From: a virus
Lineage: Duplodnaviria; Heunggongvirae; Uroviricota; Caudoviricetes
Length of the DNA stretch: 15,546 bases
Virus record (IMG/VR): IMGVR_UViG_2541047895_000009
Coordinates: 1 to 15,546 of that record
Reading direction: 5' to 3' (one strand)
The notes below the pieces were generated by a model. It saw nothing but the letters and a program-made list of their open reading frames with translations. It had not been told where the DNA came from and did no database searches. The number at the start of each line of letters is the position of its first letter. The stretch's first letter is position 1. Made by a program: the position numbers and the translations under genes. Positions 1 through 15,546 of the stretch are shown piece after piece.

Positions 1-662
<662 letters not shown>

Positions 663-922
663 ATCCACGCCAGCGTGAAGCTGGTATCTCCGGCAGATTT
701 CTGCCCCTGCCCGGTCGCAGTCCAGTCCGCATCTTCATCATCGAGATAGCTGTCGTCATAGGACTCAGCGCTCAGTTCGCCGGGCGTCAGGTCTTTAACT
801 TTAGCCAGACGCGACCAGTCAACGTCTGAAAGCGGGTTCGCATAAGGGTCACCGTTCCCCTTATAAACCCACAGGGTGGTCCCGGCCCCTTTCACCGGCA
901 TTACTGGATTTGGTACAGGCAT
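663..922 (-). pseudogene. V: major tail protein V, N-terminal 86 codons only, truncated by the IS insertion
   Basis: Translation [22 protein letters not shown]...DTSFTLAW matches the lambda gpV N-terminus, then reads into IS-derived sequence ([11 protein letters not shown], stop). ATG at 920-922 lies 7 nt after the U stop. Confidence 0.85.
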
Positions 923-929
923 ATCGTCC

Positions 930-1325
930 TCACATTTCATAGGTAATGACATAAGTCAGATCGGCTGAACTCCACAGGCCCGCATCATCGTCGCGCCGGT
1001 AGTCATAGCCACTGGCCACCATACTGGTGATCAAATCTGACAGTGCCGGGACATCGCTCATCACCGGATAAATCCGGGACTCCATCCACGAATCCAGCTC
1101 TGAATCCGGCACCTGAGCAGGCAGGAAAACTTCAATATGCAGCTCCGCCTGCCAGGTATCGCTGTCCAGCTCTTCGCCCGTGTATTCAGCGCCGGTGAGA
1201 TAAACGGCAACTGCCGGAAAATCCGCCTCATCAAAAACAGCGGGGCGACCATCAAAAAGCGTCGCCCCGGTGTCATGCTTCTCCAGTGCATCCAGTACGG
1301 CTGCACGGAGTTCTGTATGTTTCAT
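930..1325 (-). CDS. U: tail terminator protein U
   Basis: 131 aa, near-identical to lambda gpU as recalled ([22 protein letters not shown]...LTYVITYEM). ATGA overlap with the Z stop. Confidence 0.93.
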
Positions 1326-1900
1326 CGCTTTATTACCATCCTCAGTTGATGCTGCAGCGCATAGCCCAGCTCTTTCGGAAGACGTTCACGCCGTATCCGC
1401 TCAATATTCTGTTTAAACGCCGTGGTCAGCGGCACTGCCATCGGGATTTTCACCACATCAATGGGGTAACGGTTTTTCCCGGCCACACGCTGCATGACAT
1501 GCCACCGGCCATTTTTCAGTTGCTGAATAAACGCGCCGGGAATACGACGGTTTCCCACCACAAGCACGCTGTCGCCACCTTTCAGGGATGAACGCTGCCC
1601 CTTTTTACGACGCCTGCGTCGGGACAGGACAACCCGCGCGTTACCCAGCCTGATTACGGGCAAATCCCCCCGGTTAACCTTGATTCTGGCCTGCGGATTT
1701 TTGACCGTGGCCCTTTTCAGCCTGGCCCTTTCCTTTACCAGTTTCCGGCGTACCTTTGTCTCACGGGCAACCTGTGACGCCGACTGCGATATCGCGGATG
1801 AAGCAACGCGGTTAATGGCCATTGCTGACGCACCAGGCACCGCCGTTCTGCTGATACGGCTGAGGTTTTCAACGGCCTGCTCAAGACCTTTTATGGCCAT
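1322..1900 (-). CDS. Z: tail completion protein Z
   Basis: 192 aa, matches lambda gpZ length and sequence (MAIKGLEQAVENLSRISRTAVPGA...). AGGAGGAGG ribosome-binding site upstream of the ATG at 1898-1900. Confidence 0.93.
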   Translation of the reverse strand: MAIKGLEQAVENLSRISRTAVPGASAMAINRVASSAISQSASQVARETKVRRKLVKERARLKRATVKNPQARIKVNRGDLPVIRLGNARVVLSRRRRRKKGQRSSLKGGDSVLVVGNRRIPGAFIQQLKNGRWHVMQRVAGKNRYPIDVVKIPMAVPLTTAFKQNIERIRRERLPKELGYALQHQLRMVIKR

Positions 1901-1911
1901 ACCTCCTCCTT

Positions 1912-2265
1912 TCAGCGACGACGGTTAACGGCAGGCGGCACGCCACGCCCAAGCCAGAGATGACAGCTTCCGCCATCATCCGGTGAAATCCGGTCTATCC
2001 AGAAGTTTTCCTCACCGATGGTCAGCGTGTCGCCGCGCCGCAGCTGCCGCACATCATCAGTCCGGACAAACAGGGACGGGCAGGAGCCTTCAACACGTAC
2101 GCCCTGTCCGGCATAGCTGATATTTTCAGGGTCATCAAAAACACCACGTATTACTGCGCCGGACTGCTCACCGGATGTCATGGTGGCTGACGTTCCCATG
2201 TACCCGCGTATCGTTTCATCGGCGCGGGCAATGGCAGCATCGAACAGGTTATCGAAATCAGCCAC
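1912..2265 (-). CDS. FII: head-tail joining protein FII
   Basis: 117 aa, MADFDNLFDAAIARADETIRGYMG..., GTG start preceded by GGGAGG. Matches lambda gpFII. Confidence 0.92.
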   Translation of the reverse strand: MADFDNLFDAAIARADETIRGYMGTSATMTSGEQSGAVIRGVFDDPENISYAGQGVRVEGSCPSLFVRTDDVRQLRRGDTLTIGEENFWIDRISPDDGGSCHLWLGRGVPPAVNRRR

Positions 2266-2276
2266 AGCGCCTCCCG

Positions 2277-2675
2277 TTATTGCATTCTGGCCAGGCCACG
2301 TTCTGTCATTTCGGCTGCCACACCGGCAGAGACACGAAATGCCGTTCCCGGCAGCACAAATGCCACAGGTTCATCCCGCGTGGCGTGAAGTGCATCAGTA
2401 TGCAGCGTCACCAGTGCCACGACCGTGGCCAGTTCAGCCGTATCCTGAATCACGGTGTCCGGCTGCGCTGATACCACCTCATTTTCATGCCCGGTCAGCA
2501 CATTTTCCGGGCCGGGAGGGGTATCCTGACCCGCAGCGTCATCCGTGTCATCAAGCTCCTCTTCCAGCTCTGCCACACGGAGCGCCAGTTCTTCTTTCGT
2601 CCCCGTCAGGCTGACATCACGGTTCAGTTGTTCACCCAGGGAGCGGAGACGGGCAATCAGTTCATCTTTCGTCAT
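2277..2675 (-). CDS. FI: DNA-packaging/head assembly protein FI
   Basis: 132 aa from MTKDELIARLRSLGEQLNRD... to ...ERGLARMQ. GGAGGAG ribosome-binding site before the ATG at 2673-2675. The longer 145-aa ORF in the track is an upstream extension. Confidence 0.92.
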   Translation of the reverse strand: MTKDELIARLRSLGEQLNRDVSLTGTKEELALRVAELEEELDDTDDAAGQDTPPGPENVLTGHENEVVSAQPDTVIQDTAELATVVALVTLHTDALHATRDEPVAFVLPGTAFRVSAGVAAEMTERGLARMQ

Positions 2676-2716
2676 GGACTCCTCCACAGAGAAACAATGG
2701 CCCCGAAGGGCCATGA

Positions 2717-3508
2717 TTACGCCAGTTGTACGGACACGAACTCATCAGGGTCAGCCAGCAGCATCAGCGGTGCTGACTGAATCATGGTGAACTCACGCGC
2801 CGGATCGCCGGTGGTCACCCAGTTTTTCGGGTAGCGGGCAGAGGCGTTAATGCCTTCGCGCTGTGCGTCCGCATCCTGAATGCAGCCATAGGTGCGCAGA
2901 CCGCGTGCCTGAGTGTTCCCCAGTACCATCGTGTTGTCCGGCAGGAAGTTCTTTTTGACGCCGTTTTCCACGTACTGTCCGGAATACACGACGATGGCCA
3001 CATCGCCATACATCCCCTTATAGGACACCGCTTTACCCAGGTCTTTTACCGCTGTCTCCAGCTCGGAATTAGAGCCGCGACGGGTATCCAGCTTCTCCCT
3101 GACAGCTTTGAAGGAACGGAACAGCGCCCAGCCTTTCGGATCAAACACGATGATATTCACCACACCGCTGGCATTCAGCGCGTAGGCTTCAATATCGTCG
3201 GTCGGGTCATACGTGGACTTGTCACGCTTGCTCCACTCCGTGCCGCCGGACTGTGTGATGTTGTTCGCCGCACTGCGGCCCATATCCACCTCAACCGGAT
3301 CGAAGGCTTCACCGGTCATGGTGTATTTGCCCCTGAGCACGGCAGAAACGGCCTGCATCTCTTCGACCTGAGCAATGGCCAGCTCTTCGTCTCGCATGTT
3401 CTGCAGGATGATGCGACGGCGGCGGTAAGCCGGGTCCGCCAGATTCTGTGGATCTTCATCCGGCAGGCGACGCAGAGTCATCTGCGGATTCACCTCATGC
3501 TTGGGTTA
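2717..3508 (-). pseudogene. E: major capsid protein E, C-terminal fragment (codons ~83-341), separated from its 5' part by the inserted element
   Basis: Translation (PKH)EVNPQMTLRRLPDEDPQ...DEFVSVQLA matches the lambda gpE C-terminal 259 residues. An in-frame TAA lies immediately upstream of the homology and there is no promoter-proximal start. Confidence 0.9.
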
Positions 3509-3512
3509 CATG
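3494..3512. other. left junction of inserted element (attL-like): ctcaTGCTTgggttacatg
   Basis: Lambda E homology runs to about 3502, then diverges. The sequence is an imperfect direct repeat of 14911-14930 (aagTGCTTcggcttgacata), sharing the TGCTT core. Confidence 0.6.
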
Positions 3513-3583
3513 AGTCAAATATGAAAGGATGTGAATGATTTTTAGTGATAATATGCTTCAGAATTACTTCCAAAACGAACCGT

Positions 3584-3604
3584 TGCAATACATCATGCAA
3601 TACA
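3584..3604 (+). repeat. tandem direct repeats TGCAATACA (2 copies), candidate arm-type integrase-binding sites on the attL side
   Basis: TGCAATACA at 3584-3592 and 3596-3604. The same motif recurs in the same orientation at 14766-14802 beside int. Confidence 0.4.
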
Positions 3605-3626
3605 CAGGATATGTAAGGAGTTATTA

Positions 3627-3812
3627 ATGACTAATTCAGTTGATGTTCAAACCCGTAGAGAAGAATTTGAGCAAGGATATCGAGATGGCTTTCGTTCGGT
3701 TCAGGGCAATGTTTTACCCCCAAAAGCTCCAAGAATTGTACTTGAAACGGGTTCAAAACCTTACGATCAAGGCCATGCTTACGGGGTCAGAGATGCTGGA
3801 GGCAAGCGGTAG
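3627..3812 (+). CDS. small hypothetical protein (61 aa), first gene of the AT-rich cargo operon
   Basis: ATG at 3627 preceded by AAGGAG at 6-nt spacing. The overlapping alternative ORF 3640-3834 has no ribosome-binding site. No recognisable domain. Confidence 0.4.
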   Translation: MTNSVDVQTRREEFEQGYRDGFRSVQGNVLPPKAPRIVLETGSKPYDQGHAYGVRDAGGKR

Positions 3813-3856
3813 CTATCACTGGTATAGTCCATAGAAAAAGTGTAAGGGGTCCTAAA

Positions 3857-4618
3857 ATGGATAATTTTCTCAATGAGTTTTCGTCGGATCAGGAACGAGC
3901 TAGACATTTAGAGAACTTATTAATTAAGGTTGCTCGAGGAGGACCTCGAGATAATAGTGAAAATTATATTTCTCTTAGATCGTACTTTATACAAAACTCT
4001 GTATTAAAACTGTTGCTTCCTGCATTCGTAAGAGAAAACAGAAGCCTAAAAAAATTTTGGGGATTCATACAGCAGAAGTTCCCAACATATAAAGAGCGCG
4101 AGTACTTCATCTCAACTGAATTCACACCGTTATTCGATTATTTCGAAGAGAATCATGCTACGCCTTCGGATGTTCACATAACTGACGGATTAAGAAGCTA
4201 TGATGAGTGTGGCGTGAATGAAGCTTGGGCAAAAGCTCTAGACAGAAGAAACAACGATCCTGAAGGGGCTATTACAGCATCTAGAACATTGCTTGAGACG
4301 GTTTGTAAACACATTCTTGATGATTTAAGTATTACTTATGATAGAAATCTAGACATGAGTGAACTTTATAAACTAACATCCAAAGCACTTAATTTGGCTC
4401 CAGATCAGCACGGAGAACAGATTTTTAAGCAGATACTTAAAGGTTGCTCATCTGTGGTAAATGGCCTTGGCAATTTACGTAATAAATATGGCGATGCTCA
4501 TGGCATAGGGAAAAAACCAATAAAACCTGCTGATCGACATGCTCTTTTAGCTGTTAATCTTGCAGGAAGCATGTCAGTTTTCCTCATTCAAACATGGCAA
4601 AACTTGTCAAACAAATAA
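3857..4618 (+). CDS. Abi_C-domain (abortive-infection C-terminal, HEPN-like) protein, 253 aa
   Basis: C-terminal motif block ...TASRTLLETVCKHILDDL...GCSSVVNGLGNLRNKYGDAHG...ADRHALLAVNLAGSMSVFL matches the Abi_C pattern, including an R-x6-H motif (RNKYGDAH). AAGGGG ribosome-binding site 7 nt before the ATG. Strongly AT-rich relative to flanking phage DNA. Confidence 0.75.
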   Translation: MDNFLNEFSSDQERARHLENLLIKVARGGPRDNSENYISLRSYFIQNSVLKLLLPAFVRENRSLKKFWGFIQQKFPTYKEREYFISTEFTPLFDYFEENHATPSDVHITDGLRSYDECGVNEAWAKALDRRNNDPEGAITASRTLLETVCKHILDDLSITYDRNLDMSELYKLTSKALNLAPDQHGEQIFKQILKGCSSVVNGLGNLRNKYGDAHGIGKKPIKPADRHALLAVNLAGSMSVFLIQTWQNLSNK

Positions 4619-4671
4619 TACCTAATTTTTAACCTCAACTGATTAAATTTCGGTCAAACATCCGTTAGTGA

Positions 4672-4712
4672 AATACAAGTTGCTATGTAAATACACACCT
4701 GCAACTTGTATT
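4672..4712. promoter_or_regulatory. perfect 12-bp inverted repeat aatacaagttgc-N17-gcaacttgtatt, about 54 nt downstream of the Abi_C gene
   Basis: Read directly from the sequence. No U-run follows on either strand, so it is not a canonical intrinsic terminator; an operator or RNA structure is possible. Confidence 0.45.
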
Positions 4713-5572
4713 ACCAACCAAGTTTAGCTCCCGATATTACTCATTTCCATTATTTTTCCTTGGCTAGCGCTTCGTCGAACATTTTTACGTGTTATCTTCA
4801 AGGTAGATGCTCGCAGAAATGATAGTACCACCGATTCGGCGTTGACCATAAGCCAGCAGAACAAGATCCCCTTGGCCGGTTGTATTCGTTACACCACCAA
4901 ATGCATAGAATGCCTTGTTATCAGTATCTTGCTTACTCGGCTACCCACAAGATTGTGGGGATAGCATTTGAGCAACGTAGCCTATCGTCACAGAAGCCCC
5001 TACTACAAACATCATATTACTGGACGCTATACGCGCTCCTGACATTCAGATAGACACAGCAACGCAAATCATTTGCAGCAGACCAGAGCTTTTACTTTCC
5101 ACAATAACTGGCACAAATACGAATTTCCCGACCCTCAGTAGAGAGCACAAGCGCATCTTTTCCAATATTCTGTTTCCTATGAAAAATACAGAATGTCAGC
5201 TCGCGAAATTTACTAGTATTCAGATACTTTTCTAATCGAACCTCTCAGTTTAATCGTCATCATTACCTTATAGCTCTGCATTTCGAGTTCCTACAGTAGA
5301 GTAAGTGTTCAGTAACCCAAGTTCAGGAGAAAGGAAACGATCATGCCATTTTCAGTCCCAAATAATGCTTTCCATTTCCTTTCTTTTCAGGTGGTGTTTT
5401 AAATAAAAACATAAAGTTACGGCGAAGAAGAACGGAAACGCCTTAAACCGGAAAATTTCCATAAATAGAGAAAAACTGCGCGCCTTCCGCCCCGTAACGC
5501 TCCGGATCACCGGAAAGGACCCGCTCAAAAAAAGCGGCCACTGACGTGATTGTTTATGTTCCATGAGCGACA

Positions 5573-5592
5573 AAACCGCCCGGAGGCGGTTT
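5573..5592 (-). terminator. putative intrinsic terminator after the I-like gene
   Basis: Stem aaaccgcc/ggcggttt with a 4-nt loop. On the minus strand the stem is followed by UUUUG, about 20 nt after the I-like stop. Confidence 0.4.
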
Positions 5593-5610
5593 CACATAAA
5601 ACATTCTGCA

Positions 5611-6258
5611 TCAGCGACCAATCACCACGATTTCACCACCATCACCTTCATCAGCTGTGCTGATCTCCTGAGATACCACACGTGACCCCACGCGCATTTC
5701 ACCGTACAGAACAGGCAGGACATTGCCCTGGGCAACCATGTTATCCAGTGACGAGAAATACGTGTTCTGCTTACCGTTATCCGTTGTCTGTGTACGGGGA
5801 GTTCTGGCTTTCGGTGCCAGCATCTGAGCCACACCGCCAAGGATCATACTGGCCCCCGCACTATACATTCCTGTAATTGCTGCCGCTCCTAGCCAACCAG
5901 CGGGGTTCCACCACGCCACCGCAATCAGCGCCGCCCCCAGCACGGTCTGAAACACACCGCCACTTTTAGCGCCAGCAAGACGCGGTACGATGTGGATCAC
6001 AGCACCATTCGCCAGCGGCTCATTAAGACGGGCTGATAATTCATTTTCGCCTGCATCCCGCCCGGCAATCCGTACCTGATACCAACCGTCGCTCAGTTTC
6101 TGACGAAACGACGGTAGCTGTGTGGACAGAGCTCGGATGGCTTCAGCCCCCGTTTTTACACGAAGGTCGATGCGGCGGCCGAATCGTTGCAAATCCCCGT
6201 AAAGGCAGATTCGTGCCATGCCCGATGACGCCAGAGGGAGTGTGTGCGTAGTTGCCAT
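5611..6258 (-). CDS. lambda gpI-like tail assembly protein (215 aa)
   Basis: N- and C-termini (MATTHTLPLASSGMARICLYGDLQRFGRRIDLRVKTGAEAIRAL... and ...KQNTYFSSLDNMVAQGNVLPVLYGEMRVGSRVVSQEISTADEGDGG) match lambda gpI as recalled, with a divergent central segment. It is not followed by a J gene but by a hairpin and ORF-free DNA. Confidence 0.8.
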   Translation of the reverse strand: MATTHTLPLASSGMARICLYGDLQRFGRRIDLRVKTGAEAIRALSTQLPSFRQKLSDGWYQVRIAGRDAGENELSARLNEPLANGAVIHIVPRLAGAKSGGVFQTVLGAALIAVAWWNPAGWLGAAAITGMYSAGASMILGGVAQMLAPKARTPRTQTTDNGKQNTYFSSLDNMVAQGNVLPVLYGEMRVGSRVVSQEISTADEGDGGEIVVIGR

Positions 6259-6298
6259 TTGTCGGTATACCTCTCTCGTTTGCTCTGTTGTTCAGAAA

Positions 6299-6682
6299 TT
6301 AGCAGATCAACTTATAGCGTCCCTTCCGAGCATTGCGGCGTACACGTTCAATCTTGAGGCATAGCGCCGCATCTGGCTTTTTTGGGACTGGTACACGGCA
6401 ATATTCAGAAGCGCGAGGAATATTATTTATCCAGTCAATCACTTCGCTTAAATACCAGGCCTTACGCCCTTCCGTAACCTGCACACGCTCCGGGAACTCT
6501 CCACGGGCCTCAAGGTTTAGCAGTGTACGACGACTCAGGGTTGTAAGTTCCATCACCTGATTCATATCAACAAGACGCTCGCTTAAACGCATTTTGTCAG
6601 CGATAGCTTTTAATTCCTCTACAGCTGGATTTGGGTACATAATTTCGGCAATTGGCTTAAGGTCATTGTAATGATTCTGCAT
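6299..6682 (-). CDS. AlpA-family (MerR/Xis-type helix-turn-helix) DNA-binding protein with an N-terminal extension, 127 aa
   Basis: Core ...MELTTLSRRTLLNLEARGEFPERVQVTEGRKAWYLSEVIDWI fits the AlpA pattern. AAGGGGGA ribosome-binding site 5 nt before the ATG at 6680-6682. Confidence 0.6.
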   Translation of the reverse strand: MQNHYNDLKPIAEIMYPNPAVEELKAIADKMRLSERLVDMNQVMELTTLSRRTLLNLEARGEFPERVQVTEGRKAWYLSEVIDWINNIPRASEYCRVPVPKKPDAALCLKIERVRRNARKGRYKLIC

Positions 6683-6693
6683 TGTATCCCCCT

Positions 6694-7035
6694 TTACACA
6701 CGAGCCAGCGGCTGAACAGAAATACCTGAGCCAACAAACGCTGCAACCTTTACTGACAGTTCTTTTACAGACTCAGGCCAGTTCAGAGCATCAACATTTA
6801 AGACACCTGTCTTATAGACCTGAGCCTGTGTTTTTTTCGCGGTGTCGATTTGTACAGCGGATACATAAACCGCTTTACCTACGCTCGTACCATCCCATAC
6901 CACCAGTGCACCTGTTGCATCTTCCTGCATCAGTGGCGTAAATGCAGGAATTACCCCTTTATTAGCTGAAAATATCCCCAGCGTAGTAACCAGTGCTTCA
7001 GTGCCAGCCATGAGTTCAGTGTAATGAGTAGCCAT
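6694..7035 (-). CDS. gpD-like head decoration protein (113 aa), divergent from prophage D
   Basis: ALVVWDGTSVGKAVYVSAV...YKTGVLNVDALNWP aligns with the lambda gpD motif [19 protein letters not shown]...[23 protein letters not shown] ribosome-binding site; translationally adjacent to the E-like gene. Confidence 0.75.
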   Translation of the reverse strand: MATHYTELMAGTEALVTTLGIFSANKGVIPAFTPLMQEDATGALVVWDGTSVGKAVYVSAVQIDTAKKTQAQVYKTGVLNVDALNWPESVKELSVKVAAFVGSGISVQPLARV

Positions 7036-7044
7036 TGCTCCCCC

Positions 7045-8085
7045 TTAGCCAATGCGAACGGTAACAAAACGATTGATGCGGGCCGGTATTGGCTGTGGTG
7101 CTGAATGTGTCTGCACATATTCAATAGCCGGATCACCAGGCACAATATAGTTTTTCGGTGCAAGTTCGGCTTTAGTCAGCCCCATTCGGATTAGCTCCGG
7201 ATCCTGAATACCGCCATAGGCGACAATCCCCTGAAGAGCCGTATTGCCAAGCACCATCAAATCAGGATCAAGGAAATGTTTTTCAGTTCCGTCCTCGTCG
7301 GTATAACGCCCGCTGTAAACAACAATCGCAACATCGCCCATATACCCTTTAAAACTCACCGAATCACCAAGGTCTTTAAGGGCCGTTTCCAGTTCGGAAT
7401 TAGAACCACGACGGGTATCCAGAGCCTCTTTTATCGCTCTGAATGAACGGTATTTCTTCCATACATTACCGCCCATAATGATGATATTAGTGACGCCCTC
7501 ACTAAATTCTGCGTAGTTCTCAATATCATCATTTGGATCAAAAGTTTCTTTATCCTTACCTGACCACTCAGCACCGCCAGACTGAGTGATGATATTTTGT
7601 GGTTTAATATTCCAGTCCAGCTCATAACGTTCAATACCATCGCCCTCAATGATATTTTTCCCCGTTGTGATTGCCTGAACGGCAAGCCATTCAATACGTG
7701 CACGAATAGCTTTAGCTTGATTTACAATCGCCTGTTTAACTTTAATATTACGCGCCCCAAAAGCATTGTATTGCTCAGGTGATACACCAGCAGGGCGCAC
7801 AGCTAACTTATTTGGATCAATGCTGCTTTTCGGCTTCATATAGCCTGGACGAATTGTTTTTGATTCGTACCCTTCGTCACGTGAAACTTTACTACCCACC
7901 ATAGGAGAACAAAACGCTGCAATTGGGATATTTGGATCGTCGATTGTATCAAGAATAATATCGCGCGATTCAAACATTACCGAGCGAGTAAAAAACAAAC
8001 GGGTAAACAACGCATTTAGTTGTTTTTGTACATCTACAGCATTAACCACCTGTACAAGCTGGGTAGGCGAATATAAATCAACCAT
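7045..8085 (-). CDS. lambda E-like major capsid protein (347 aa), divergent second copy encoded within the inserted element
   Basis: Clear homology along its length to lambda gpE (GYMKPK vs GYVKPK; ITQSGGAEWSGKDKETFDPNDDIENYA vs ITQSGGTEWSKRDKSTYDPTDDIEAYA; LDTRRGSNSELETALKDLG...GDVAIVVYSG). Start taken at the ATG at 8083-8085, 6 nt after AAAGAGG; the 404-aa track ORF is an upstream extension. AT-richer than the prophage E. Confidence 0.85.
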   Translation of the reverse strand: MVDLYSPTQLVQVVNAVDVQKQLNALFTRLFFTRSVMFESRDIILDTIDDPNIPIAAFCSPMVGSKVSRDEGYESKTIRPGYMKPKSSIDPNKLAVRPAGVSPEQYNAFGARNIKVKQAIVNQAKAIRARIEWLAVQAITTGKNIIEGDGIERYELDWNIKPQNIITQSGGAEWSGKDKETFDPNDDIENYAEFSEGVTNIIIMGGNVWKKYRSFRAIKEALDTRRGSNSELETALKDLGDSVSFKGYMGDVAIVVYSGRYTDEDGTEKHFLDPDLMVLGNTALQGIVAYGGIQDPELIRMGLTKAELAPKNYIVPGDPAIEYVQTHSAPQPIPARINRFVTVRIG

Positions 8086-8259
8086 ACGCATCCTCTTTGC
8101 ATTCATTAAAAATAATTGTGGATATATGCTATCACCGATATTTGTCATGCGAATACATGCAACCGAGTGCAATGTTGTATAAAGTTTTGGGATGACAACT
8201 TCAGCGCGGATAATTAGTGTTAATATCTTCACTCCCTTTGGTCGGGATTTATGTAGCAT

Positions 8260-8294
8260 GCCGGAAAATTTATTTTTTTCCGGCCTTTTTTATT
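8260..8294 (+). terminator. GC-stem hairpin plus T-run (gccggaaaa-N7-ttttccggc CTTTTTTATT), terminator-like on the plus strand
   Basis: Read from sequence between ssb and the E-like gene. The U-run follows the stem only on the plus strand, so it would stop antisense or convergent transcription rather than ssb read-through. Confidence 0.35.
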
Positions 8295-8302
8295 GGCAAT
8301 AT

Positions 8303-8752
8303 TTAAAACGGAATATCATCTCCCCATTGCTCATTATCTCCCACTGGTGGATGGCTTCCTTGCTGATCTGCCTGTTGTTTTGCTCTGTTCAGTGCGTCAG
8401 TAGCCTGCCCCTGTTGGCCTTTTTTGCCGCCCGGTCGCACCGTTCGCGCACTGATTACGCTGTCTGCGATAACCTGCCAGCCCTGCCGCGTTTCACCGTT
8501 CTGTCCAGTCCACTGACTCACCTGCATGTTACCCGCCACGCTCAGGAGTTCGCCTTTGTGATGCTTTGCCAGCGCGTCGGCTTGTCTGCCAAACGCCAGA
8601 ACAGATAACCACATCGTCGCCTGACCGTCATCCGATTGGCTGCAGGGCAGTGATACCGCCATACGCGCCAGCGTCATGGGGGTGCCCTTGCTGGTCTGTT
8701 TTGTCTGCGGGGCGTCCACCAGCCGCCCGTAAGCTGCTATTTGCGCCGTCAT
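8303..8752 (-). CDS. ssb: single-stranded DNA-binding protein (SSB)
   Basis: 149 aa. OB-fold-like N-terminal region, Gly/Gln-rich linker and the hallmark acidic C-terminal tail ...WGDDIPF. ATGA overlap with the upstream ORF. Confidence 0.85.
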   Translation of the reverse strand: MTAQIAAYGRLVDAPQTKQTSKGTPMTLARMAVSLPCSQSDDGQATMWLSVLAFGRQADALAKHHKGELLSVAGNMQVSQWTGQNGETRQGWQVIADSVISARTVRPGGKKGQQGQATDALNRAKQQADQQGSHPPVGDNEQWGDDIPF

Positions 8753-9006
8753 GCTGCCTGCTCTCCGGACTTAATATTGATGGTTGTCACTTCCTCCGCT
8801 TCGGCAATCTCCCGTTCGGTCAGCGTGGCAAAGTTTGCAGCCGCCGTTGTCATGAATGCGCTTATCAGTTCGGGATGTGCTTTCGCGTATCCTTCCCCGG
8901 CGTTGCGGTCTATTGCCTTAATCGCCACCCTTAGCCAGTGTTCAGCCATATCAAGGGCGCGGTAATGTGGCTTTATATGTTTGTTCAGTTTTCCTGATGT
9001 GTGCAT
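8749..9006 (-). CDS. hypothetical protein (85 aa), between origin and ssb
   Basis: ORF translationally coupled to ssb (ATGA overlap). No recognisable motif. Confidence 0.45.
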   Translation of the reverse strand: MHTSGKLNKHIKPHYRALDMAEHWLRVAIKAIDRNAGEGYAKAHPELISAFMTTAAANFATLTEREIAEAEEVTTINIKSGEQAA

Positions 9007-9051
9007 TTTTATTTTTACCCCCTCGTTTAAAAAGTTTTTTGTGCACCACCA

Positions 9052-9283
9052 CCTTGTCTACCTTGTCTACCTGATTAGTTATCAGGCCAGTAATGGCGCG
9101 GGTTTCAGGGAGGTAGACAGCCCCAAATAGCTGTCTACCTCATCTCTACCCGTCTCCTTACCTGTCTACAAAAATGGGTAGATAAGGTAGATAACAGGTA
9201 GACAGTGAAAAATAGTTATCTACCTGCATTAATACATTGAAATAAAAGTATTTTCTTTCAGTCAGGTAGACAAGGTAGATAAC
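9052..9283. repeat. iteron array, putative replication origin: at least 11 copies of GGTAGA(C/T)A / T(G/A)TCTACC in both orientations
   Basis: Copies include cttgtctacc x2 (9053-9071), gaggtagacag, gctgtctacc, cctgtctaca, gggtagataaggtagataacaggtagacag, ttatctacc and caggtagacaaggtagataacc. Lies immediately downstream of the primase gene in an AT-rich non-coding gap. Confidence 0.7.
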
Positions 9284-9295
9284 CATTGCCATTTT

Positions 9296-11047
9296 TTATA
9301 AAAACGCATCGCAATCATCAGTAGTCGTTGCGTTGGTCTGCGTGACTCCCTTAACTTTTCGCGTAATATATTCATATCCGTAAACTTTCGCCGCTGACCT
9401 CATAGCCTTTCCGAACTCATTCACGCTCAAACATTTCCCCTTTCCTGTGTATGCCATGAAGGCCATATAGACACGGTAAAGGCTGTTTCTGGTCGTGTAC
9501 TTCACGGAGTCACCACCACCGCCCATCATTAGCCCACGAGCTTCCTCCAGAAACTCAAGCGCCGCGCAAAGCTCAACAACTGGATCCGTTTGCTGCTTTA
9601 TTGCCAGAGCTTCATCACCGTCACGCTGTTCCAGTAGTAAAGCCCTTGCCTTTTCAGGGTCAGCAAAGTTAGCCAGCAAGCGGCGGATAATTACGGGGAT
9701 TTCTGCCGCTATCTTTTCCGGTAATTCCTTGTCTTTTTCGTCCTCCCTTACAATGTTGTCGAACCGGAAAATCACCCGACGGCGTGACACACCTCCGGCC
9801 CGTTCGGTAAAGATCATCGGGTCGTTATTGGTTGCCAGTACCACCGCCCTTATTATCGTCGTGAATCGCTTCTCATATTTCGGATTGATTTCAACGGGAT
9901 CGCCTCCCGTGATTTTCTTGATGCCCGTGCCTTCCCCCGTATATTTCGGCTGATCGGCAAGGACGATAAGACGACTCCCGACAACCTGCGCGCGCCCTCC
10001 TGCATCATCGAGTGATGTCATCTCTGCGCTTACGGTGTTCTGTTTGCCTGCAAGCAGGGTGGCAATATGGGTAAATGTACTCTTACCGCTTCCCCCGTCT
10101 CCGGTGGCCTCAATGAACATCTGCCAGTCGTAGCGGTTCGCCATAATCATGTATAACGCGGCACATATACGCATCATCTTGCGCGGGTCTTTTCCTGCAG
10201 CATGTTCAAGCCATTTATGGAAATTTGGCGCATTATCGCGGATGTTTTCCCCTGCTACTGGTGGCGTGTACTCAATACCATTGTGCGTGGTGCTCCAGTG
10301 CTCCGGCGAGTGCGGAGAAAATTCCCCCGTTTTCAGATTAAGCACACCATTAGTGAACGGTAGCAAATCACCGGACGGCTCCCCCATGGGGGCGGCAATA
10401 ACTTTTAACGCTTCCACGGCGTTATTGATTACGCGTTTGCTGAACGTGGCCCTGTGCTCTGAATAGATCGCCACCATTTCGCGGCTCAGCTCCATTGTGC
10501 TGACCGGACACCATACCCCGCCGCGCCATACGTGGACGATTTCACTTTCTGCATGAACACAAACACCATCAAAGCGATCGGCAAGTAGTTGTGCCCGCTC
10601 ACTGTCTGCCATCTGTGAAAGTTGCGCCTTTTGCTTCGTCGGAAGATTAAGCACCAGGCTTTCCCCACGCTCGCATTCCTCTTTGAGTCGCGGCAACTGG
10701 TCGGATAAATCCACAGGGCTGGTGTCAGTAATCCCCGCGTATTCGTGTACGGTCTTCACTCCAGCCACAGCCAGTAACGTAACAATCTGCGTCATGCTGT
10801 GCTCTGTGATATGTCCTGCGCGGTAAACACGCACACACTGACGATCTTCATCAATGATCCGGTAATCGGTGATGTTTTTCAGTTGCTCATCAGCCAGCAC
10901 GACAGGCGGCACATCGTCGGCGGCAATATGTTTACCCGCCCATTCCTGCCACTCTTTCGCATGGCTCCACGCATCACTACCTGCAAAGATGATTACCTCT
11001 GTCAGTCTGTCGCGTGGCTGTTTTTTTAAGTTCGGTGCCAGTTTCAT
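9296..11047 (-). CDS. P4-alpha-type primase/replicase (D5-N / phage-plasmid primase C-terminal family), 583 aa
   Basis: Walker A P-loop EATGDGGSGKSTF plus the typical satellite/PICI primase-helicase layout. ATGA overlap with the upstream 99-aa ORF. Confidence 0.88.
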   Translation of the reverse strand: MKLAPNLKKQPRDRLTEVIIFAGSDAWSHAKEWQEWAGKHIAADDVPPVVLADEQLKNITDYRIIDEDRQCVRVYRAGHITEHSMTQIVTLLAVAGVKTVHEYAGITDTSPVDLSDQLPRLKEECERGESLVLNLPTKQKAQLSQMADSERAQLLADRFDGVCVHAESEIVHVWRGGVWCPVSTMELSREMVAIYSEHRATFSKRVINNAVEALKVIAAPMGEPSGDLLPFTNGVLNLKTGEFSPHSPEHWSTTHNGIEYTPPVAGENIRDNAPNFHKWLEHAAGKDPRKMMRICAALYMIMANRYDWQMFIEATGDGGSGKSTFTHIATLLAGKQNTVSAEMTSLDDAGGRAQVVGSRLIVLADQPKYTGEGTGIKKITGGDPVEINPKYEKRFTTIIRAVVLATNNDPMIFTERAGGVSRRRVIFRFDNIVREDEKDKELPEKIAAEIPVIIRRLLANFADPEKARALLLEQRDGDEALAIKQQTDPVVELCAALEFLEEARGLMMGGGGDSVKYTTRNSLYRVYMAFMAYTGKGKCLSVNEFGKAMRSAAKVYGYEYITRKVKGVTQTNATTTDDCDAFL

Positions 11048-11343
11048 TTTTTGCCCCTGAATGCGTTAATCATGCTTTTCATTTTCTGGATGTTTCCCCG
11101 CGCTTTTTCCCTGCTGGTGGGCTTACTGCGGGGTGCGGCATATACCAGGGAAAAATCACGCCGGAACTGATAAACAGGCATCACGCAGTCATAGCTATAC
11201 CCCTCACGGCGGTAAGTGATGCGCCGTTCTGCCACGCCTTTAATCGTTACCGTGCCGCCGTATTTATCGCGGTAAATATCGCCGTTCATAAATTCAGGCC
11301 GAGCGGGGCCGCTGGCAATAAAGCCAGAATTTTTCATTTCCAT
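11044..11343 (-). CDS. hypothetical protein (99 aa), translationally coupled to the primase
   Basis: ORF with ATG at 11341-11343; its stop overlaps the primase start. No motif recognised. Confidence 0.55.
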   Translation of the reverse strand: MEMKNSGFIASGPARPEFMNGDIYRDKYGGTVTIKGVAERRITYRREGYSYDCVMPVYQFRRDFSLVYAAPRSKPTSREKARGNIQKMKSMINAFRGKK

Positions 11344-11360
11344 ATTATTTATTCTTCGAC

Positions 11361-11582
11361 TTAACTCGACTTATTTGATAGCAGGGCACTATTTATTGCG
11401 TCATTGAGTTTTTCTGCTGCTTCATCAATAAGTGACAACAGGCCATAAGCAATATTTGCATCTTCATTGTCATTTATGCAATCAAGCCACATATTTAATA
11501 TTGCTTTTGCTGAATTATTTAAAGTTAATGAACTCTCTGCACATGCTAACAATTTAAAAAAGACTTCTCGTTCTGTATTCAT
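11361..11582 (-). CDS. hypothetical small protein (73 aa), AT-rich
   Basis: ORF in a tightly packed same-strand array upstream of the primase. Confidence 0.45.
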   Translation of the reverse strand: MNTEREVFFKLLACAESSLTLNNSAKAILNMWLDCINDNEDANIAYGLLSLIDEAAEKLNDAINSALLSNKSS

Positions 11583-11774
11583 TTAATCCCCCACCAGCTT
11601 ACTTTCTTCCTCAATCAGGAAACTAGCGACACTTCCCGAAAGGCGCGCCAGTAGGCTCGCCAGCGCGGATATATCAGCATCTGTAATTTTGTTCGGGTAT
11701 ACCTCAAGAAGGCGGCAAATAATCTCTGTTTGGTGCGCACGTTCAGCGGCTTCGTGTAATGTGATTTCCTGCAT
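11583..11774 (-). CDS. hypothetical small protein (63 aa)
   Basis: ORF abutting neighbours with start/stop overlaps, suggesting an operon. Confidence 0.45.
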   Translation of the reverse strand: MQEITLHEAAERAHQTEIICRLLEVYPNKITDADISALASLLARLSGSVASFLIEEESKLVGD

Positions 11775-11959
11775 TAATGCACCTCTTTTAATTCATACAC
11801 TGCTGAAATAATGACTTGTGATAAGCCATATTCTGATGATTCGCTTCTCACCGCAGCAATAGCCGTCTGAACATTAACAGCCTTCACGTTCTGAGCGATA
11901 CCAATTGTGTGGCCTCGTGGGTTAACAGCTCGGGCAAATACACGGAAGGTTTTAAGCAC
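11774..11959 (-). CDS. hypothetical small protein (61 aa), GTG start
   Basis: GTG at 11957-11959 preceded by AGGAGG at about 6-nt spacing. Overlaps the stop of the upstream ORF. Confidence 0.45.
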   Translation of the reverse strand: MLKTFRVFARAVNPRGHTIGIAQNVKAVNVQTAIAAVRSESSEYGLSQVIISAVYELKEVH

Positions 11960-12155
11960 GGCGCACCTCCTGACGAATACGGGCAGCGAATACCATCACG
12001 CAGCCAGTTGGGGATTGCTGGCGGGCTTCCTGTTCGCTGATGGCCTCGATGGTAATCACGCGCGGTTGTGCCGTACTCAAGGCGATAAAACGCCAGATGT
12101 ATTTATTCAGGTTGTGCGAGTTCCGCCCTTGCGGGTGTGTGGTATGATTTCTCAT
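11952..12155 (-). CDS. hypothetical small protein (67 aa), first gene of the leftward regulatory operon
   Basis: ATG at 12153-12155 preceded by GAGGT. The longer track ORF (to 12215) would run through the upstream inverted-repeat region. Confidence 0.45.
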   Translation of the reverse strand: MRNHTTHPQGRNSHNLNKYIWRFIALSTAQPRVITIEAISEQEARQQSPTGCVMVFAARIRQEVRRA

Positions 12156-12190
12156 AGCTACCTCGATACTGTTGCTATCGTTGGTGGTTA

Positions 12191-12292
12191 AACGCCCTGT
12201 ATGTGTTGCGAGCACTGCAGGGCGTTGTTCCAGAGCAATAAAACATGATAAGGTGTGTACCTATCAAGAAGCATACTAAGCAATAGGTACAT
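12191..12292. promoter_or_regulatory. divergent promoter/operator region with two inverted repeats
   Basis: AACGCCCTG-N18-CAGGGCGTT (12191-12226) and GTGTACCTAT-N18-ATAGGTACAT (12255-12292), located between the divergently oriented small-ORF operon and the RHH gene. Confidence 0.4.
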
Positions 12293-12294
12293 AC

Positions 12295-12489
12295 ATGTCA
12301 ACTATCATTCAGCGCGATAAACAGCCGAAAGGTGCTGGTAAGGCACCGGCATTTCAGATCCGTATCAACCCGGAACTAAAAGAACAAATGGTTAGTGCGG
12401 CTGCAAAAGAAGGAATGAGTTTGGCTAATTGGCTTAAAGAACTAGCAAGAGCAGAACTACGCAAACAAGGTATTGAACCTAGAGGTTAA
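12295..12489 (+). CDS. Arc/ribbon-helix-helix-type small DNA-binding protein (64 aa), candidate repressor or antitoxin
   Basis: KAPAFQIRINPELKEQMVSAAAKEGMSLANWLKELARAELRK fits the RHH beta-strand plus two helices pattern. No obvious Shine-Dalgarno; the second inverted repeat abuts its start. Confidence 0.6.
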   Translation: MSTIIQRDKQPKGAGKAPAFQIRINPELKEQMVSAAAKEGMSLANWLKELARAELRKQGIEPRG

Positions 12490-12513
12490 GACTTTTAAAA
12501 GGATCTGTGAGAG

Positions 12514-13239
12514 ATGCAAAATCTAAAACGAATAAGTGAATATAATTTAACAGACAATCCTATCCCACATTATTTCCCTCATGATAGTAGATTCCTGTCT
12601 CTACTTGGGAAATTTTCGTTCCGACTTGAAGATCTAATAGTATTTCACTCATTTGTTTATCATACATATAACATAAATCTTAAGGAGATACAAAAAATTG
12701 CAGATAACACTCCCCAATATAATCCAGACTTATTAGACGATGAAGAGCATGAAATGGCCTTGATTTCTCAAGCCAGACATAGAGAGAGGGTTGGTTATTA
12801 TGATGATCTTAATAGAAAAGCCTCATTTTTTGCCAATGACAGTGTCGTAATTAATCTTTGGGCTATTATTGAACAGTTTAGTACCATGGCATACTCTTTG
12901 CTAGAAGCAATTATTAAAGAAATACCTGAAAATCAAGTTAAAGTTCCATATACATGGGATAAATTAAAAAAGAAATACTTAAGTTATGGTATTGACCTCT
13001 CCCAACTTGATTCTTACGATGTCATTAACGAAACTAGGGTTTTAAACAACAAAATCAAACACCTTTATATTGTCGATGAAAACCTTGCCTCTTTTCCTTT
13101 TTTCAAGGACAAAGAGAACAAGTCATTATTAGGAATGGAATATAGGCTTCAAGATTATGTTATTGGAACTCATAAGTTCATCGGGCATCTTTTAGAGGAT
13201 TGCTCCATAAAATTAGGAAATAAGGCAAACATGATTTAA
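12514..13239 (+). CDS. hypothetical protein (241 aa), very AT-rich cargo gene downstream of the RHH gene
   Basis: Long uninterrupted ORF 24 nt after the RHH gene. No motif I can assign with confidence. Confidence 0.65.
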   Translation: MQNLKRISEYNLTDNPIPHYFPHDSRFLSLLGKFSFRLEDLIVFHSFVYHTYNINLKEIQKIADNTPQYNPDLLDDEEHEMALISQARHRERVGYYDDLNRKASFFANDSVVINLWAIIEQFSTMAYSLLEAIIKEIPENQVKVPYTWDKLKKKYLSYGIDLSQLDSYDVINETRVLNNKIKHLYIVDENLASFPFFKDKENKSLLGMEYRLQDYVIGTHKFIGHLLEDCSIKLGNKANMI

Positions 13240-13243
13240 ATTA

Positions 13244-13270
13244 ATTAGGTAGGTAATAAACCTACCTAAT
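13244..13270. terminator. perfect 10-bp inverted repeat attaggtagg-taataaa-cctacctaat between convergent genes
   Basis: Read from sequence; sits between the 241-aa gene (+) and alpA (-). AT-rich flanks on both sides, so possibly a bidirectional terminator. Confidence 0.45.
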
Positions 13271-13279
13271 TGAAATGAT

Positions 13280-13513
13280 TTACTTATTTAAGTACCATTC
13301 CCCACGAATCCACGCCTGCACCTCCGAAAGGCGATATGCTACGGCAGTGGCACCTATTTTAATTCGCTTTGGAAACTTTCCTTCTTTCTCTAACTTCCAT
13401 CGAGTGCTATTAGCAAGAGTAGTTAACTCACGGCATTCTTTCTCACGGATCATTCGGTCAATGTTAGGAATGTATTCCAGACCCTTTTTATCAACAATTG
13501 CCATTTTTTTCAT
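13280..13513 (-). CDS. alpA: AlpA-family excisionase/transcriptional regulator (77 aa)
   Basis: ...CRELTTLANSTRWKLEKEGKFPKRIKIGATAVAYRLSEVQAWI fits the AlpA helix-turn-helix pattern. Immediately downstream of int on the same strand. Confidence 0.8.
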   Translation of the reverse strand: MKKMAIVDKKGLEYIPNIDRMIREKECRELTTLANSTRWKLEKEGKFPKRIKIGATAVAYRLSEVQAWIRGEWYLNK

Positions 13514-13514
13514 G

Positions 13515-14750
13515 TTAACCAGCCTTTTGTTTGAGGATTGTCACTTTTGAATCAGCAGCTGCGATGCTATTGAGATATGTAGTCCAGAGTTCCAGAGCAT
13601 CCAGTTTTTTAGCCATAAACTTACTCCGGTTGTAAACACCTGCCACGCCAGGTAGCGCATGGCCTAACAGTTGTTCTACTACATAAAATTCAACACCGAG
13701 ATCACTTAGATGAGTAGATAGCGTTCTTCTAAGGTCGTGTAGTGACCATTGTTTTTCATGGCCCAAACGTTTACCGATTTTCCCCCCAATCTTGCTTACG
13801 CTTTCTCTAATTCGCAGACTTCCCAGCACATAACCAGTATGTTTTGTCTCTTCGTGAACATCCGTTACCCACTGTCGTAGAATTTCAGGTACTGGTCTGA
13901 CGATTTCAACACCAGTTTTTGAGTGATCTTTTGGTACAGTCCAAACCCAACTTTCGAGATCCCATTCGCTCCATTCTGATAATCGGGCTTCACTCATTCG
14001 ACATCCAAATACTGTACAAAGCACAAACATTTTTCGCGTGTATTCAGACATTAGTTTTAAATCAGGCTCGACAAAAATTGCCTTCCAGAGCTGGCCGAGT
14101 TCGGCTTCATCCAGAACCCGATCCCGCTTACCTGCAATCTGCCCCACATCACTCATGCGCAAATCCTTTAAAGCATCACACGTCGCGTACTGGCGTACCC
14201 GACAAAAACGAAGAGCTAATTTAGTGTCAGAAAAAACATACGCCGCCATAACTGGTGCATTACTTTTAATTCGGTCAAAACAGTCCAGCCATTCATATAG
14301 GTGAGTGTCATTTACGGGCAAATGACCGATATAGGGAAAGATATGCTTTCGAAATCTGCCAAGCGTTACAGCATGAGTTTTACGACGCACCTTACAGTAA
14401 TTTTCATACCAGTAATTTAGTGCATCCTCCACTGTGACCGGCTTTAAGCGTTCTTCAGCCTGAATCTTAATCTGGATACGCGGATCACGTTTGTCAGCCA
14501 ACCAAGCACGGCACTCGTCGCGCTTTTCCCTTGCCTGTTTGAGTGACATATCAGGATATTTACCCAACGTTAGCCAGACCGGAGCAGCCCGGCCACCTGC
14601 TAACCTGTAGAAGAAAACAAAGCTCACAGCCCCCTTGGTACTCACACGAATAGAAAGCCCCTTTCCATCAGCAATGGTGATCTGCTTTTCTCTGGGTTTC
14701 CCCAGATATCCTTTAAGTGCTTTGTCGCTCAGTTTGTTCTCGCCAGCCAT
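13515..14750 (-). CDS. int: P4-type tyrosine integrase (411 aa)
   Basis: N-terminal arm-binding-type domain (LSDKALKGYLGKP...ADGKGLSIRVSTKGAVSFVFFYRLAGG...WLTLGKYPDMSLKQAREKRDE) and a catalytic domain with R...HDLRRT...LLGH...Y. Start taken at the ATG at 14748-14750; the 455-aa track ORF is an upstream extension. Ends about 160 bp inside the right junction. Confidence 0.9.
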   Translation of the reverse strand: MAGENKLSDKALKGYLGKPREKQITIADGKGLSIRVSTKGAVSFVFFYRLAGGRAAPVWLTLGKYPDMSLKQAREKRDECRAWLADKRDPRIQIKIQAEERLKPVTVEDALNYWYENYCKVRRKTHAVTLGRFRKHIFPYIGHLPVNDTHLYEWLDCFDRIKSNAPVMAAYVFSDTKLALRFCRVRQYATCDALKDLRMSDVGQIAGKRDRVLDEAELGQLWKAIFVEPDLKLMSEYTRKMFVLCTVFGCRMSEARLSEWSEWDLESWVWTVPKDHSKTGVEIVRPVPEILRQWVTDVHEETKHTGYVLGSLRIRESVSKIGGKIGKRLGHEKQWSLHDLRRTLSTHLSDLGVEFYVVEQLLGHALPGVAGVYNRSKFMAKKLDALELWTTYLNSIAAADSKVTILKQKAG

Positions 14751-14765
14751 TTTTAGCCCCAAAAA

Positions 14766-14802
14766 GCAATACAAGCTGCAATACAGAGATGATTGCAACA
14801 CA
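14766..14802 (+). repeat. direct repeats GCAATACA x2 plus variant TGCAACACA in the int upstream region, candidate arm-type Int sites
   Basis: gcaataca at 14766-14773, tgcaataca at 14777-14785, tgcaacaca at 14794-14802; same motif and orientation as 3584-3604 at the other end. Confidence 0.4.
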
Positions 14803-14882
14803 CAGATAACGAGGAAAATCCAGTGAAAGCGCCAGATAAACTTATTCTTTATTATCAAAAGATTAAGTGTAAAAACCAGCAA

Positions 14883-15158
14883 CTACACGAAAGCCTCAGA
14901 AAGCCATGCTAAGTGCTTCGGCTTGACATATCCCGGCGTAAATTCAGAGGTGGAGCCGCCACGGGAGCGGATAACCTCACCGGAAACAATCGGCGAAACG
15001 TACAGCGCCATGTTTACCAGCCCCGGAATTTGTGAGAGATAGACTTTCTCCGTGGTGAAGGGATAGCTCTCACGGAAAAAGAGACGCAGAAACAGCGGAT
15101 CAAACTTAAATTTCTGCTCATTTGCCGCCAGCAGCTGGGCGGTTGTGTACATCGACAT
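14883..15158 (-). pseudogene. E: major capsid protein E, N-terminal fragment (codons 1-82) fused to 9 element-derived codons and a stop
   Basis: MSMYTTAQLLAANEQKFKFDPLFLRL...SEFTPGYVKPKH matches the lambda gpE N-terminus, then LAWLSEAFV and stop from element DNA. Confidence 0.9.
14905..14930. other. right junction of inserted element (attR-like): gctaagTGCTTcggcttgacata
   Basis: Lambda E homology begins at about 14914. Imperfect direct repeat of 3494-3512 sharing the TGCTT core. Confidence 0.6.
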
Positions 15159-15171
15159 AAAAAAATCCCGT

Positions 15172-15192
15172 AAAAAAAGCCGCAAAGGCGGC
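15172..15192 (-). terminator. D-E intercistronic hairpin (gccgc-ctttg-cggc) followed by a U7 run on the transcribed strand
   Basis: On the minus strand the RNA reads GCCGCCUUUGCGGC UUUUUUU ACGGGAUUUUUUU AUG. Attenuator/terminator-like structure between D and E. Confidence 0.4.
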
Positions 15193-15213
15193 CTTTAGTG
15201 ATGAAGGGTCAGG

Positions 15214-15546
15214 TTAAACGATGCTGATTGCCGTTCCGGCAAACGCGGTCCGTTTTTTCGTCTCGTCGCTGGCAGCATCCGGCCAGAGCACATCCTCATA
15301 ACGGAACGTGCCGGACTTGTAGAACGTCAGCGTGGTGCTGGTCTGGTCAGCAGCAACCGCCAGAATGCCAACAGCAGCACCGTCAGTGGTGCCATCCCAC
15401 GCAACCAGCTTACGGGTGGAGGTATCCGGCATCAGCGGGGTCATTGCAGGCGTTTTCGCACTCAATCCGCCGGGCGCGGTTGCGGTATGAGCCGGGTCAC
15501 TGTTGCCCAGCGGCTGGTAATGGGTAAAGGTTTCTTTGCTCGTCAT
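15214..15546 (-). CDS. D: head decoration protein D
   Basis: 110 aa, [27 protein letters not shown]...[11 protein letters not shown], matches lambda gpD. The start codon is the last three bases of the window. Confidence 0.93.

Follow-up and report, generated by a model that had tools for sequence, protein, structure and literature searches.

What occupies about 1 kb of viral DNA in which no gene is apparent? The question is raised by positions 1 to 15,546 of IMG/VR record IMGVR_UViG_2541047895_000009 (Caudoviricetes), the whole stretch analyzed here and hereafter called the window, in which the interval 4619-5610, between an abortive-infection gene and a lambda I-like tail gene, had been proposed from its letters alone to be a pseudogene remnant, a structured non-coding RNA or a small hydrophobic peptide gene. 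We conclude, with a probability of roughly 0.87, that the late zone of a helper-embedded PICI (HE-PICI), a phage satellite seated inside gene E of a lambdoid prophage, has its non-coding 3' end in this gene-poor stretch, the core of which is a lambda-type cos site. The stretch represents ordinary, known biology and holds no new RNA or peptide gene; the sequence-only reading had overlooked its main feature, the cos at 5327-5524, together with the satellite context. The element itself is already catalogued, and published work covers the family it belongs to, the site of its integration, where cos lies in PICIs and the distinction between Rpp-dependent and phage-type cosB.

The satellite spans 3499..14912 on the minus strand and encloses the gene-poor stretch. 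The window is a piece of E. coli chromosome, 99.7% identical to strain RM14723 (CP027103), and the coordinates of the catalogue entry CP027103.1/2907985-2896572, listed as Eco8567.11.E_Phage_cap_E_80 with identity block 'aagca' (supplementary file 3 of Tommasini, Mageeney and Williams 2023, PMC10111431), translate to window 3499-14912. In the PGAP annotation, the lambdoid prophage's major capsid gene E lies in two fragments flanking the PICI, the C-terminal one ending at ~3505 and the N-terminal one beginning at ~14911, and the junctions, read directly, place the interruption of the protein between ...GYVKPKH and EVNPQ.... An automatic direct-repeat search for att sites gave none, because the identity block is only ~5 bp; the att junctions read by hand agree with the published coordinates.

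Between the E fragments, the minus strand carries, in the order given by PGAP, an integrase gene, an HTH gene, an Icd-like gene, DUF4222, a primase gene, SSB, a second capsid gene, a decoration gene, an AlpA-like gene, a K fragment and gene I, and beyond the gene-poor stretch the plus strand carries the Abi gene and a 61-aa ORF. This gene order falls into the four ordered zones of HE-PICIs, namely Integration (int, AlpA/HTH), Bro, Replication (primase, SSB, ori) and Late (PMC10111431), of which Bro was only lightly analyzed here. Iterons lie downstream of the primase gene, and the late zone consists of the capsid, decoration and AlpA-like genes, the K'-I fragment and cos. Membership in the E:Phage_cap_E:80 group is borne out by the insertion, which interrupts a late gene of the prophage at codon ~80 of the Phage_cap_E profile and has the orientation of that gene, and the integrase DNA is 99% identical to that of the LR-50 satellite, which occupies the same insertion site. 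With the 11capE / E:Phage_cap_E:80 HE-PICIs (PMC10111431), the window satellite has in common the insertion site in gene E, the four-zone layout, the absence of terS and a cos that ends the late zone at its 3' side and resembles the helper's; the type member 11capE, itself without terS, has 258 bp at 90% in common with the cos of its helper (PMC10111431). Three traits set the window lineage apart from this group: it has an extra, captured K'-I fragment between the AlpA-like gene and cos, a gpI-like pseudogene follows its cos, and its cohesive-end 12-mer is unlike that of the resident prophage. The cos site and the satellite context account for the lack of coding sequence in the gene-poor stretch.

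The cos site comprises a complete lambda-type cosQ-cosN-cosB array at 5327-5524 on the minus strand, colinear with lambda. In a megablast of the region, the cos regions of lambda and of ~3700 E. coli records match only window 5375-5524, with an overall identity to lambda of 88% over 150 bp. Aligned with phages lambda and YDC107_1, with the resident prophage and with three sister satellites, the sequence runs from cosQ to R1 without a gap, in lambda order, orientation and spacing. A block containing cosQ (5503-5522, GGGTCCTTTCCGGTGATCCG) agrees with lambda at 20/20 positions and lies a few tens of bp upstream of cosN, where the cohesive-end 12-mer GGGCGGAAGGCG (5481-5492; 7/12 against lambda GGGCGGCGACCT) sits between conserved nick-site flanks, GTTACG before it and CGC after it, that align to lambda cosN. 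The elements of cosB follow on the same minus strand in lambda order and spacing: R3 (5425-5440, CGTTTCCGTTCTTCTT; 16/16), the I1 segment corresponding to the lambda interval between R3 and R2 (5393-5418; 24/26), an interval that in lambda holds the IHF site, R2 (5370-5385; 13/16), inverted relative to R1 and R3, and the terminase small-subunit binding repeat R1 (5327-5342, GATCGTTTCCTTTCTC; 14/16), which makes a 10-bp perfect inverted pair with R2. By homology, colinearity and conservation, window 5327-5524 is a lambda-type cos site, at which terminase cleavage and packaging are predicted. Sub-sites, order, orientation and spacing are thus those of lambda, and the cosQ block and R3 are identical to it, whereas five positions of the 12-mer are changed, the R2-R1 spacer is unrelated and no Nu1 gene lies past R1. 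Within the repeats themselves, of 16 positions each, R2 has 3 mismatches to lambda and R1 has 2.

Late-gene sequence lies on either side of this site. Beyond cosQ, a 31-bp junction (5525-5555), from whose first base onward the sister satellites are unrelated, leads to a captured lambdoid late-gene fragment (5556..6299, minus strand), in which phage homology begins at 5556 and identity to the K-I region of many lambdoid phages is ~90%. It comprises the K 3' end (6156-6299, minus strand), an intact gene I (5611-6258, minus strand; Pfam Lambda_tail_I, E 1e-23) and, within 55 bp downstream of I, a terminator-like hairpin (5571-5590; fold z = -3.6); only 5556-5610 of it falls within the gene-poor stretch. 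The K'-I fragment is missing from sister satellites, among them those of VCSW7 and LR-50; there the AlpA-like gene, itself placed after the capsid/decoration genes, directly abuts cos and the downstream cargo is unrelated. The fragment is a more recent capture.

On the cosB side, the sequence-only reading had picked out a stop-flanked minus-strand fragment (...AFYAFGGVTNTTGQGDLVLLAYGQRRIGGTIISASIYLEDN) and guessed at a decayed gene. The fragment is present and the guess was right, the relic being larger than supposed: 4791..5153 on the minus strand is a lambda gpI-like tail assembly pseudogene that corresponds to residues ~77-204, the C-terminal two-thirds of a gpI-like gene. A tblastn search with the intact I protein (5611-6258) pairs it with residues 77-204 at 31% identity (E 1e-12), and by blastn its DNA is 67-75% identical to annotated tail assembly genes. 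Having no start codon, two in-frame stops and no N-terminal domain, 4791-5153 falls outside Lambda_tail_I, and its translation matches no Pfam family. The SCU-316 satellite has a diverged copy (74% nt) of the same relic after its cos, annotated by PGAP as an incomplete hypothetical protein. Between the pseudogene and R1 lies an AT-rich spacer (5154..5326; 36% GC) for which distant blastn, tblastn with protein I and Rfam gave no similarity; when 4619-5380 was compared with phages and E. coli genomes by distant blastn, matches were confined to the gpI-like segment.

Part of this arrangement bears marks of recent exchange. A block of 1979 bp (3507-5485), reaching from midway through the 12-nt cohesive end to the att core and taking in cosB, the pseudogene and the Abi cargo, has 0 mismatches against the VCSW7 satellite, whereas outside it the two satellites differ by 0.6-1.8%; four mismatches cluster in 5486-5503, and past 5524 the sequences are unrelated. 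The position of the breakpoint raises the idea, which we hold to be unlikely but worth stating, that cosN is a joint for module swapping between satellites. Heterologous packaged molecules could anneal and be ligated at their cohesive ends, with mismatch repair or replication following, and a portable 'cosB plus defense gene' cassette would then be bounded by the cut site of terminase and the crossover site of integrase. Ordinary homologous recombination within the conserved cos island of ~200 bp explains the identical block equally well.

Is the cos still functional? The 12-mer of the resident prophage is the canonical lambda GGGCGGCGACCT, from which the satellite's GGGCGGAAGGCG differs at 5 of 12 positions. 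The latter immediately precedes Nu1 in the helper prophage of VCSW7 as well as in phage YDC107_1, and since 27/30 IMG/VR loci bearing it are in phage context with Nu1 downstream, it can be regarded as a working phage variant. The flanking bases of the satellite's cosQ-cosN half are nearer the satellite type than the phage type, which bears on whether this half came from a phage along with the K'-I capture. An IS3 in the resident prophage cuts the tail tube gene, and from that point through J its tail genes have been lost; with this loss and the differing 12-mer, the prophage may not be a working helper for this satellite copy. Both observations would also be expected if the cos were an inert relic, with the satellite copy stranded in a defective prophage and the stretch idle, and so would the single-base frameshifts in int and primase of the near-identical RM14723 copy and the clear decay of the neighboring I' gene. 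Nevertheless, all cos sub-sites are intact and in register, and the window's own int (411 codons) and primase (583 codons) are intact, unlike those of RM14723, with 99% identity to copies so annotated. A helper could moreover come by infection, and the cosB-plus-cargo block, 100% identical between two satellites whose backbones are 1.8% apart, points to recent mobility. We consider an inert relic improbable, and favor a cos that a suitable terminase could still use.

Which proteins would read it is a separate matter, as the E. coli PICI packaging paradigm in print is Rpp-dependent: EcCICFT073 has kept cosQ and cosN, and its different cosB is read by an Rpp-TerS heterocomplex (PMC6739421). EcCICFT073 cos1 (Fillol-Salom et al. 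2019, PMC6739421) and the window cos belong to E. coli PICIs with lambdoid helper terminase packaging, are lambda-like in cosQ and cosN, and occupy an equivalent position on a related backbone; the two differ in that the window element keeps the phage R elements and has no Rpp. That the window cos works only through an Rpp-TerS heterocomplex, like EcCICFT073 cos1, would conform to the published paradigm and to the many sister PICIs with the same capsid-decoration-AlpA module that carry an Rpp-like 'terminase small subunit' gene directly after cos, and whose blastn homology to the window stops just past cosN. Against this, tblastn found no Nu1 or Rpp homologue in the window, and the phage-type R3, R2 and R1 present here are a feature that the sampled Rpp-bearing satellites lack. 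Among the 20 IMG/VR satellites on which this dichotomy rests, the R elements are absent in 4/4 with an Rpp-like gene, and R2 and R1 are kept in 16/16 without a TerS-like gene, a split that fits the Rpp model (PMC6739421). The window satellite, having neither the rpp gene nor a cosB stripped of phage R elements, is thus very unlikely to be confined to the Rpp-TerS route.

Because the satellite encodes no Rpp or TerS and keeps the phage R elements, helper TerS should bind its cosB directly; judging from these elements, the satellite should use helper TerS as such and not an Rpp-TerS heterocomplex. The window element is one of the E. coli satellites with a phage-type cosB and no Rpp, which are predicted to compete directly against the helper genome for unmodified TerS and not to redirect packaging. 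Cos-type SaPIs belong to another host phylum, and their sequences are unrelated to that of the window satellite. The parallel is one of layout: a copy of the helper cos and a capsid-protein homologue occur here, as is reported for SaPIbov5 (Carpena et al. 2016, PMC5052747).

Under direct use of helper TerS, packaging might proceed as follows. The satellite would excise and then replicate, after which a helper TerS of the gpNu1 type would occupy the R repeats and IHF would bend the DNA at I1. A TerL of the gpA type would nick cosN, generating 12-nt 5' overhangs of GGGCGGAAGGCG, and packaging would start on the cosB side, taking in the pseudogene, Abi, att and int and later the capsid genes and I, before terminating at a later cos with the assistance of cosQ. 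The satellite unit measures 11.4 kb, and four tandem units of ~45.7 kb in total would be compatible with phage-length concatemer packaging, for which Tommasini et al. point to a model PICI of E. coli (PMC10111431).

At the opposite end of the gene-poor stretch, an Abi_C / AbiJ-like abortive-infection gene (3857..4618, plus strand; Pfam Abi_C E 1.7e-23, PADLOC AbiJ E 2.4e-22) forms the left boundary, lying at the 3' end of the satellite and convergent to the stretch. PICIs carry immune systems at their 5' or 3' ends (PMC11364771), and the cargo of the sister elements likewise consists of defense genes (TIR, restriction endonuclease, Abi), so that the position of the Abi/AbiJ gene fits known defense cargo at PICI ends. 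A variable defense gene between cos and the att end also recalls the defense hotspots described for the ends of PICIs and beside the cos of P4 (PMC11364771; Rousset et al. 2022, PMC9122126), a likeness that concerns the neighboring cargo and not the non-coding stretch itself. Placed beside cos, an Abi-type defense gene would travel with the satellite.

The Abi stop codon is followed by an AT-rich spacer (4619..4790, plus strand; 36% GC) that holds, as first described, a 12-bp perfect inverted repeat (4672-4683 / 4701-4712) with a 17-nt loop, one of only four such repeats (loop 3-40) in the 15.5-kb window. The fold of its region has z scores of -3.1 (plus strand) and -5.6 (minus strand), yet the repeat at 4672-4712 has no T-run and is therefore not a canonical intrinsic terminator. 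A promoter/terminator consensus scan of 3500-6800 gave counts at or below shuffle expectation, with nothing at the inverted repeat or after gene I, and distant blastn found no DNA similar to 4619-4790 outside four E. coli genomes. Probably the Abi transcript carries at its 3' end a hairpin formed by the repeat, which would also act as a barrier to transcription converging from the other side; this role is something of a guess given the missing T-run and the lack of homologues outside the four genomes. Sister satellites divide on the point: the cargo of IAI39 has a comparable hairpin right after its TIR gene, whereas ST69 has no post-stop hairpin in the 220 nt after its Abi gene, its nearest inverted repeat being a 30-nt near-palindrome (3781-3810 of locus L008), so the comparison adds little weight to this role. 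Separately, a remnant of the J-gene N-terminus was sought downstream of the I' relic, at 4620-4790, and rejected, as the minus-strand frames, judged by eye, are unlike the lambda J N-terminus, and blastn gave nothing.

The better-than-shuffled folding of the inverted-repeat region (z -3.1, -5.6) and the absence of a coding signal would suit the proposal of a structured non-coding RNA within the stretch, for instance at the repeat. Rfam, however, gives no family, either at gathering score across the whole window or at E<0.5, and a permissive scan of 4000-6300 returned as its sole E<1 match one of 17 bits against a gathering score of 48.8. The promoter counts lie below shuffle expectation, and the segment occurs in only four genomes, all identical, so that the copies offer no covariation. 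It is more economical to take a simple hairpin just past a stop codon for the 3' end of an mRNA, and we give a structured RNA very little chance beside that reading.

The description of the stretch as free of ORFs of at least 60 aa requires one amendment, as a 73-codon TTG-start ORF runs across cos on the minus strand (5352-5573); PGAP annotates no gene within 4619-5610 in any of the three genomes where the stretch is identical. This ORF has no Pfam match, and ORFs called across cos, such as this one and WP_244565124.1 in strain LR-50, are probably spurious. For annotation, the gene-free 3' ends of Gram-negative PICIs are better regarded as cos plus late-gene debris than as candidate RNA or peptide genes. 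Two smaller features noted earlier are likewise present, a 19-codon ORF (MPFSVPNNAFHFLSFQVVF, 5343-5402) and a AGGAGAAAGGA string (5325-5335) taken for a ribosome-binding region, but the string coincides with R1 of cosB. We consider it extremely unlikely that together they are a small hydrophobic peptide gene served by its own ribosome-binding site, even though the ATG start lies 7 nt past AGGAGAAAGGA. The ORF goes from just after R1 through R2 into I1, and these elements are conserved with lambda as DNA and function on the opposite strand. Much of the ORF consists of the R2-R1 spacer, for which lambda has unrelated sequence, so that the peptide is not conserved, and the ORF is unremarkable in 1 kb that holds 21 mechanical ORFs of at least 20 aa. 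The palindrome CCCACAAGATTGTGGG was also correctly spotted, at 4944-4959 and thus 3 nt from the position first given; hairpins with a 6-bp stem and a loop of 3-8 nt occur ~2 per kb across the window, so this 16-nt palindrome is no more than chance would yield. It falls inside the gpI-like pseudogene.

Cohesive-end 12-mers of three kinds were found across the window, the RM14723 record (L001), L005, L006 and the IMG/VR loci L012-L067. Lambda and the resident prophage (L001, at about 32700) carry GGGCGGCGACCT, the satellite in the window (5481-5492), phage YDC107_1 and the VCSW7 helper share GGGCGGAAGGCG, and the satellites of VCSW7 and LR-50 have GGGCGTCAGGCG. Among the IMG/VR loci bearing them, GGGCGGAAGGCG lies in a phage context in 27 of 30, and GGGCGTCAGGCG in a satellite context in 24 of 26. 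Satellite and resident helper differed in their 12-mer in both of the pairs compared (2/2).

The satellite of the window and that of VCSW7 (L005) are identical over 1979 bp (window 3507-5485, zero mismatches), a block that covers cosB, the I' relic (a gpI-like tail assembly pseudogene at 4791-5153, minus strand) and the Abi cargo (an Abi_C/AbiJ-like gene at 3857-4618, plus strand). Their backbones diverge by 1.8% over 6306-12215 and by 0.6% in the int region, and a cluster of four mismatches occupies 5486-5503, inside and just beyond the 12-mer. Judged from these alignments, the common cosB, I' relic and Abi block appears to have been swapped recently as a module, with a breakpoint in cosN.

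Sister satellites carry variable cargo downstream of cos, in the region from cos to the att end (L004, L007, L008, L010 and L068): a TIR-domain protein in IAI39, an Abi family protein in ST69, a restriction endonuclease in SCU-316, a PerC regulator in 06-00048 and a hypothetical protein of 311 aa in LR-50. Such variability is in keeping with the defence hotspot reported at the 3' end of PICIs. Just upstream of the Abi gene of the window, and in the same orientation, lies a 61-aa ORF (3627-3812; WP_021559942.1), for which searches of Pfam and PADLOC each returned no match; it may encode a partner of the Abi protein.

On the other side of cos, a K' fragment and an intact lambda-like gene I (5556-6299) form a captured segment that separates the AlpA-like gene from cos. 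This segment shows about 90% identity to phages, and the capture was seen in three genomes, namely the three with a 100% match to the entire query. Over cos sites themselves, annotation pipelines have called 'hypothetical proteins', including WP_244565124.1 in LR-50 (L004, 11896-12138) and several in the lambda record KT232076 (L002, 2429-2802); the 73-codon ORF at 5352-5573 of the window is probably the same type of artefact.

The satellite (3499-14912) encodes capsid and decoration proteins of its own, from an E-like gene at 7045-8085 and a D-like gene at 6694-7035; the decoration proteins of satellite and prophage share an identity of only 38%. At the start of the window, an IS3 copy adjoins a truncated tail tube gene (1-662 and 655-1538). 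The RM14723 prophage is without the genes from tail tube through J, and the resident 'helper' is therefore defective.

Directly downstream of the satellite's primase gene, 9111-9283 holds direct-repeat arrays, AGGTAGACAG...CTGTCTACCT and GGTAGATAAGGTAGATAAC, which are probably the iterons of its replication origin. The window stems from a different strain or a corrected assembly, since it has two additional single bases relative to RM14723 (L001), in 9296-11047 and 13515-14750, and primase and integrase are intact in the window and annotated as frameshifted in RM14723.
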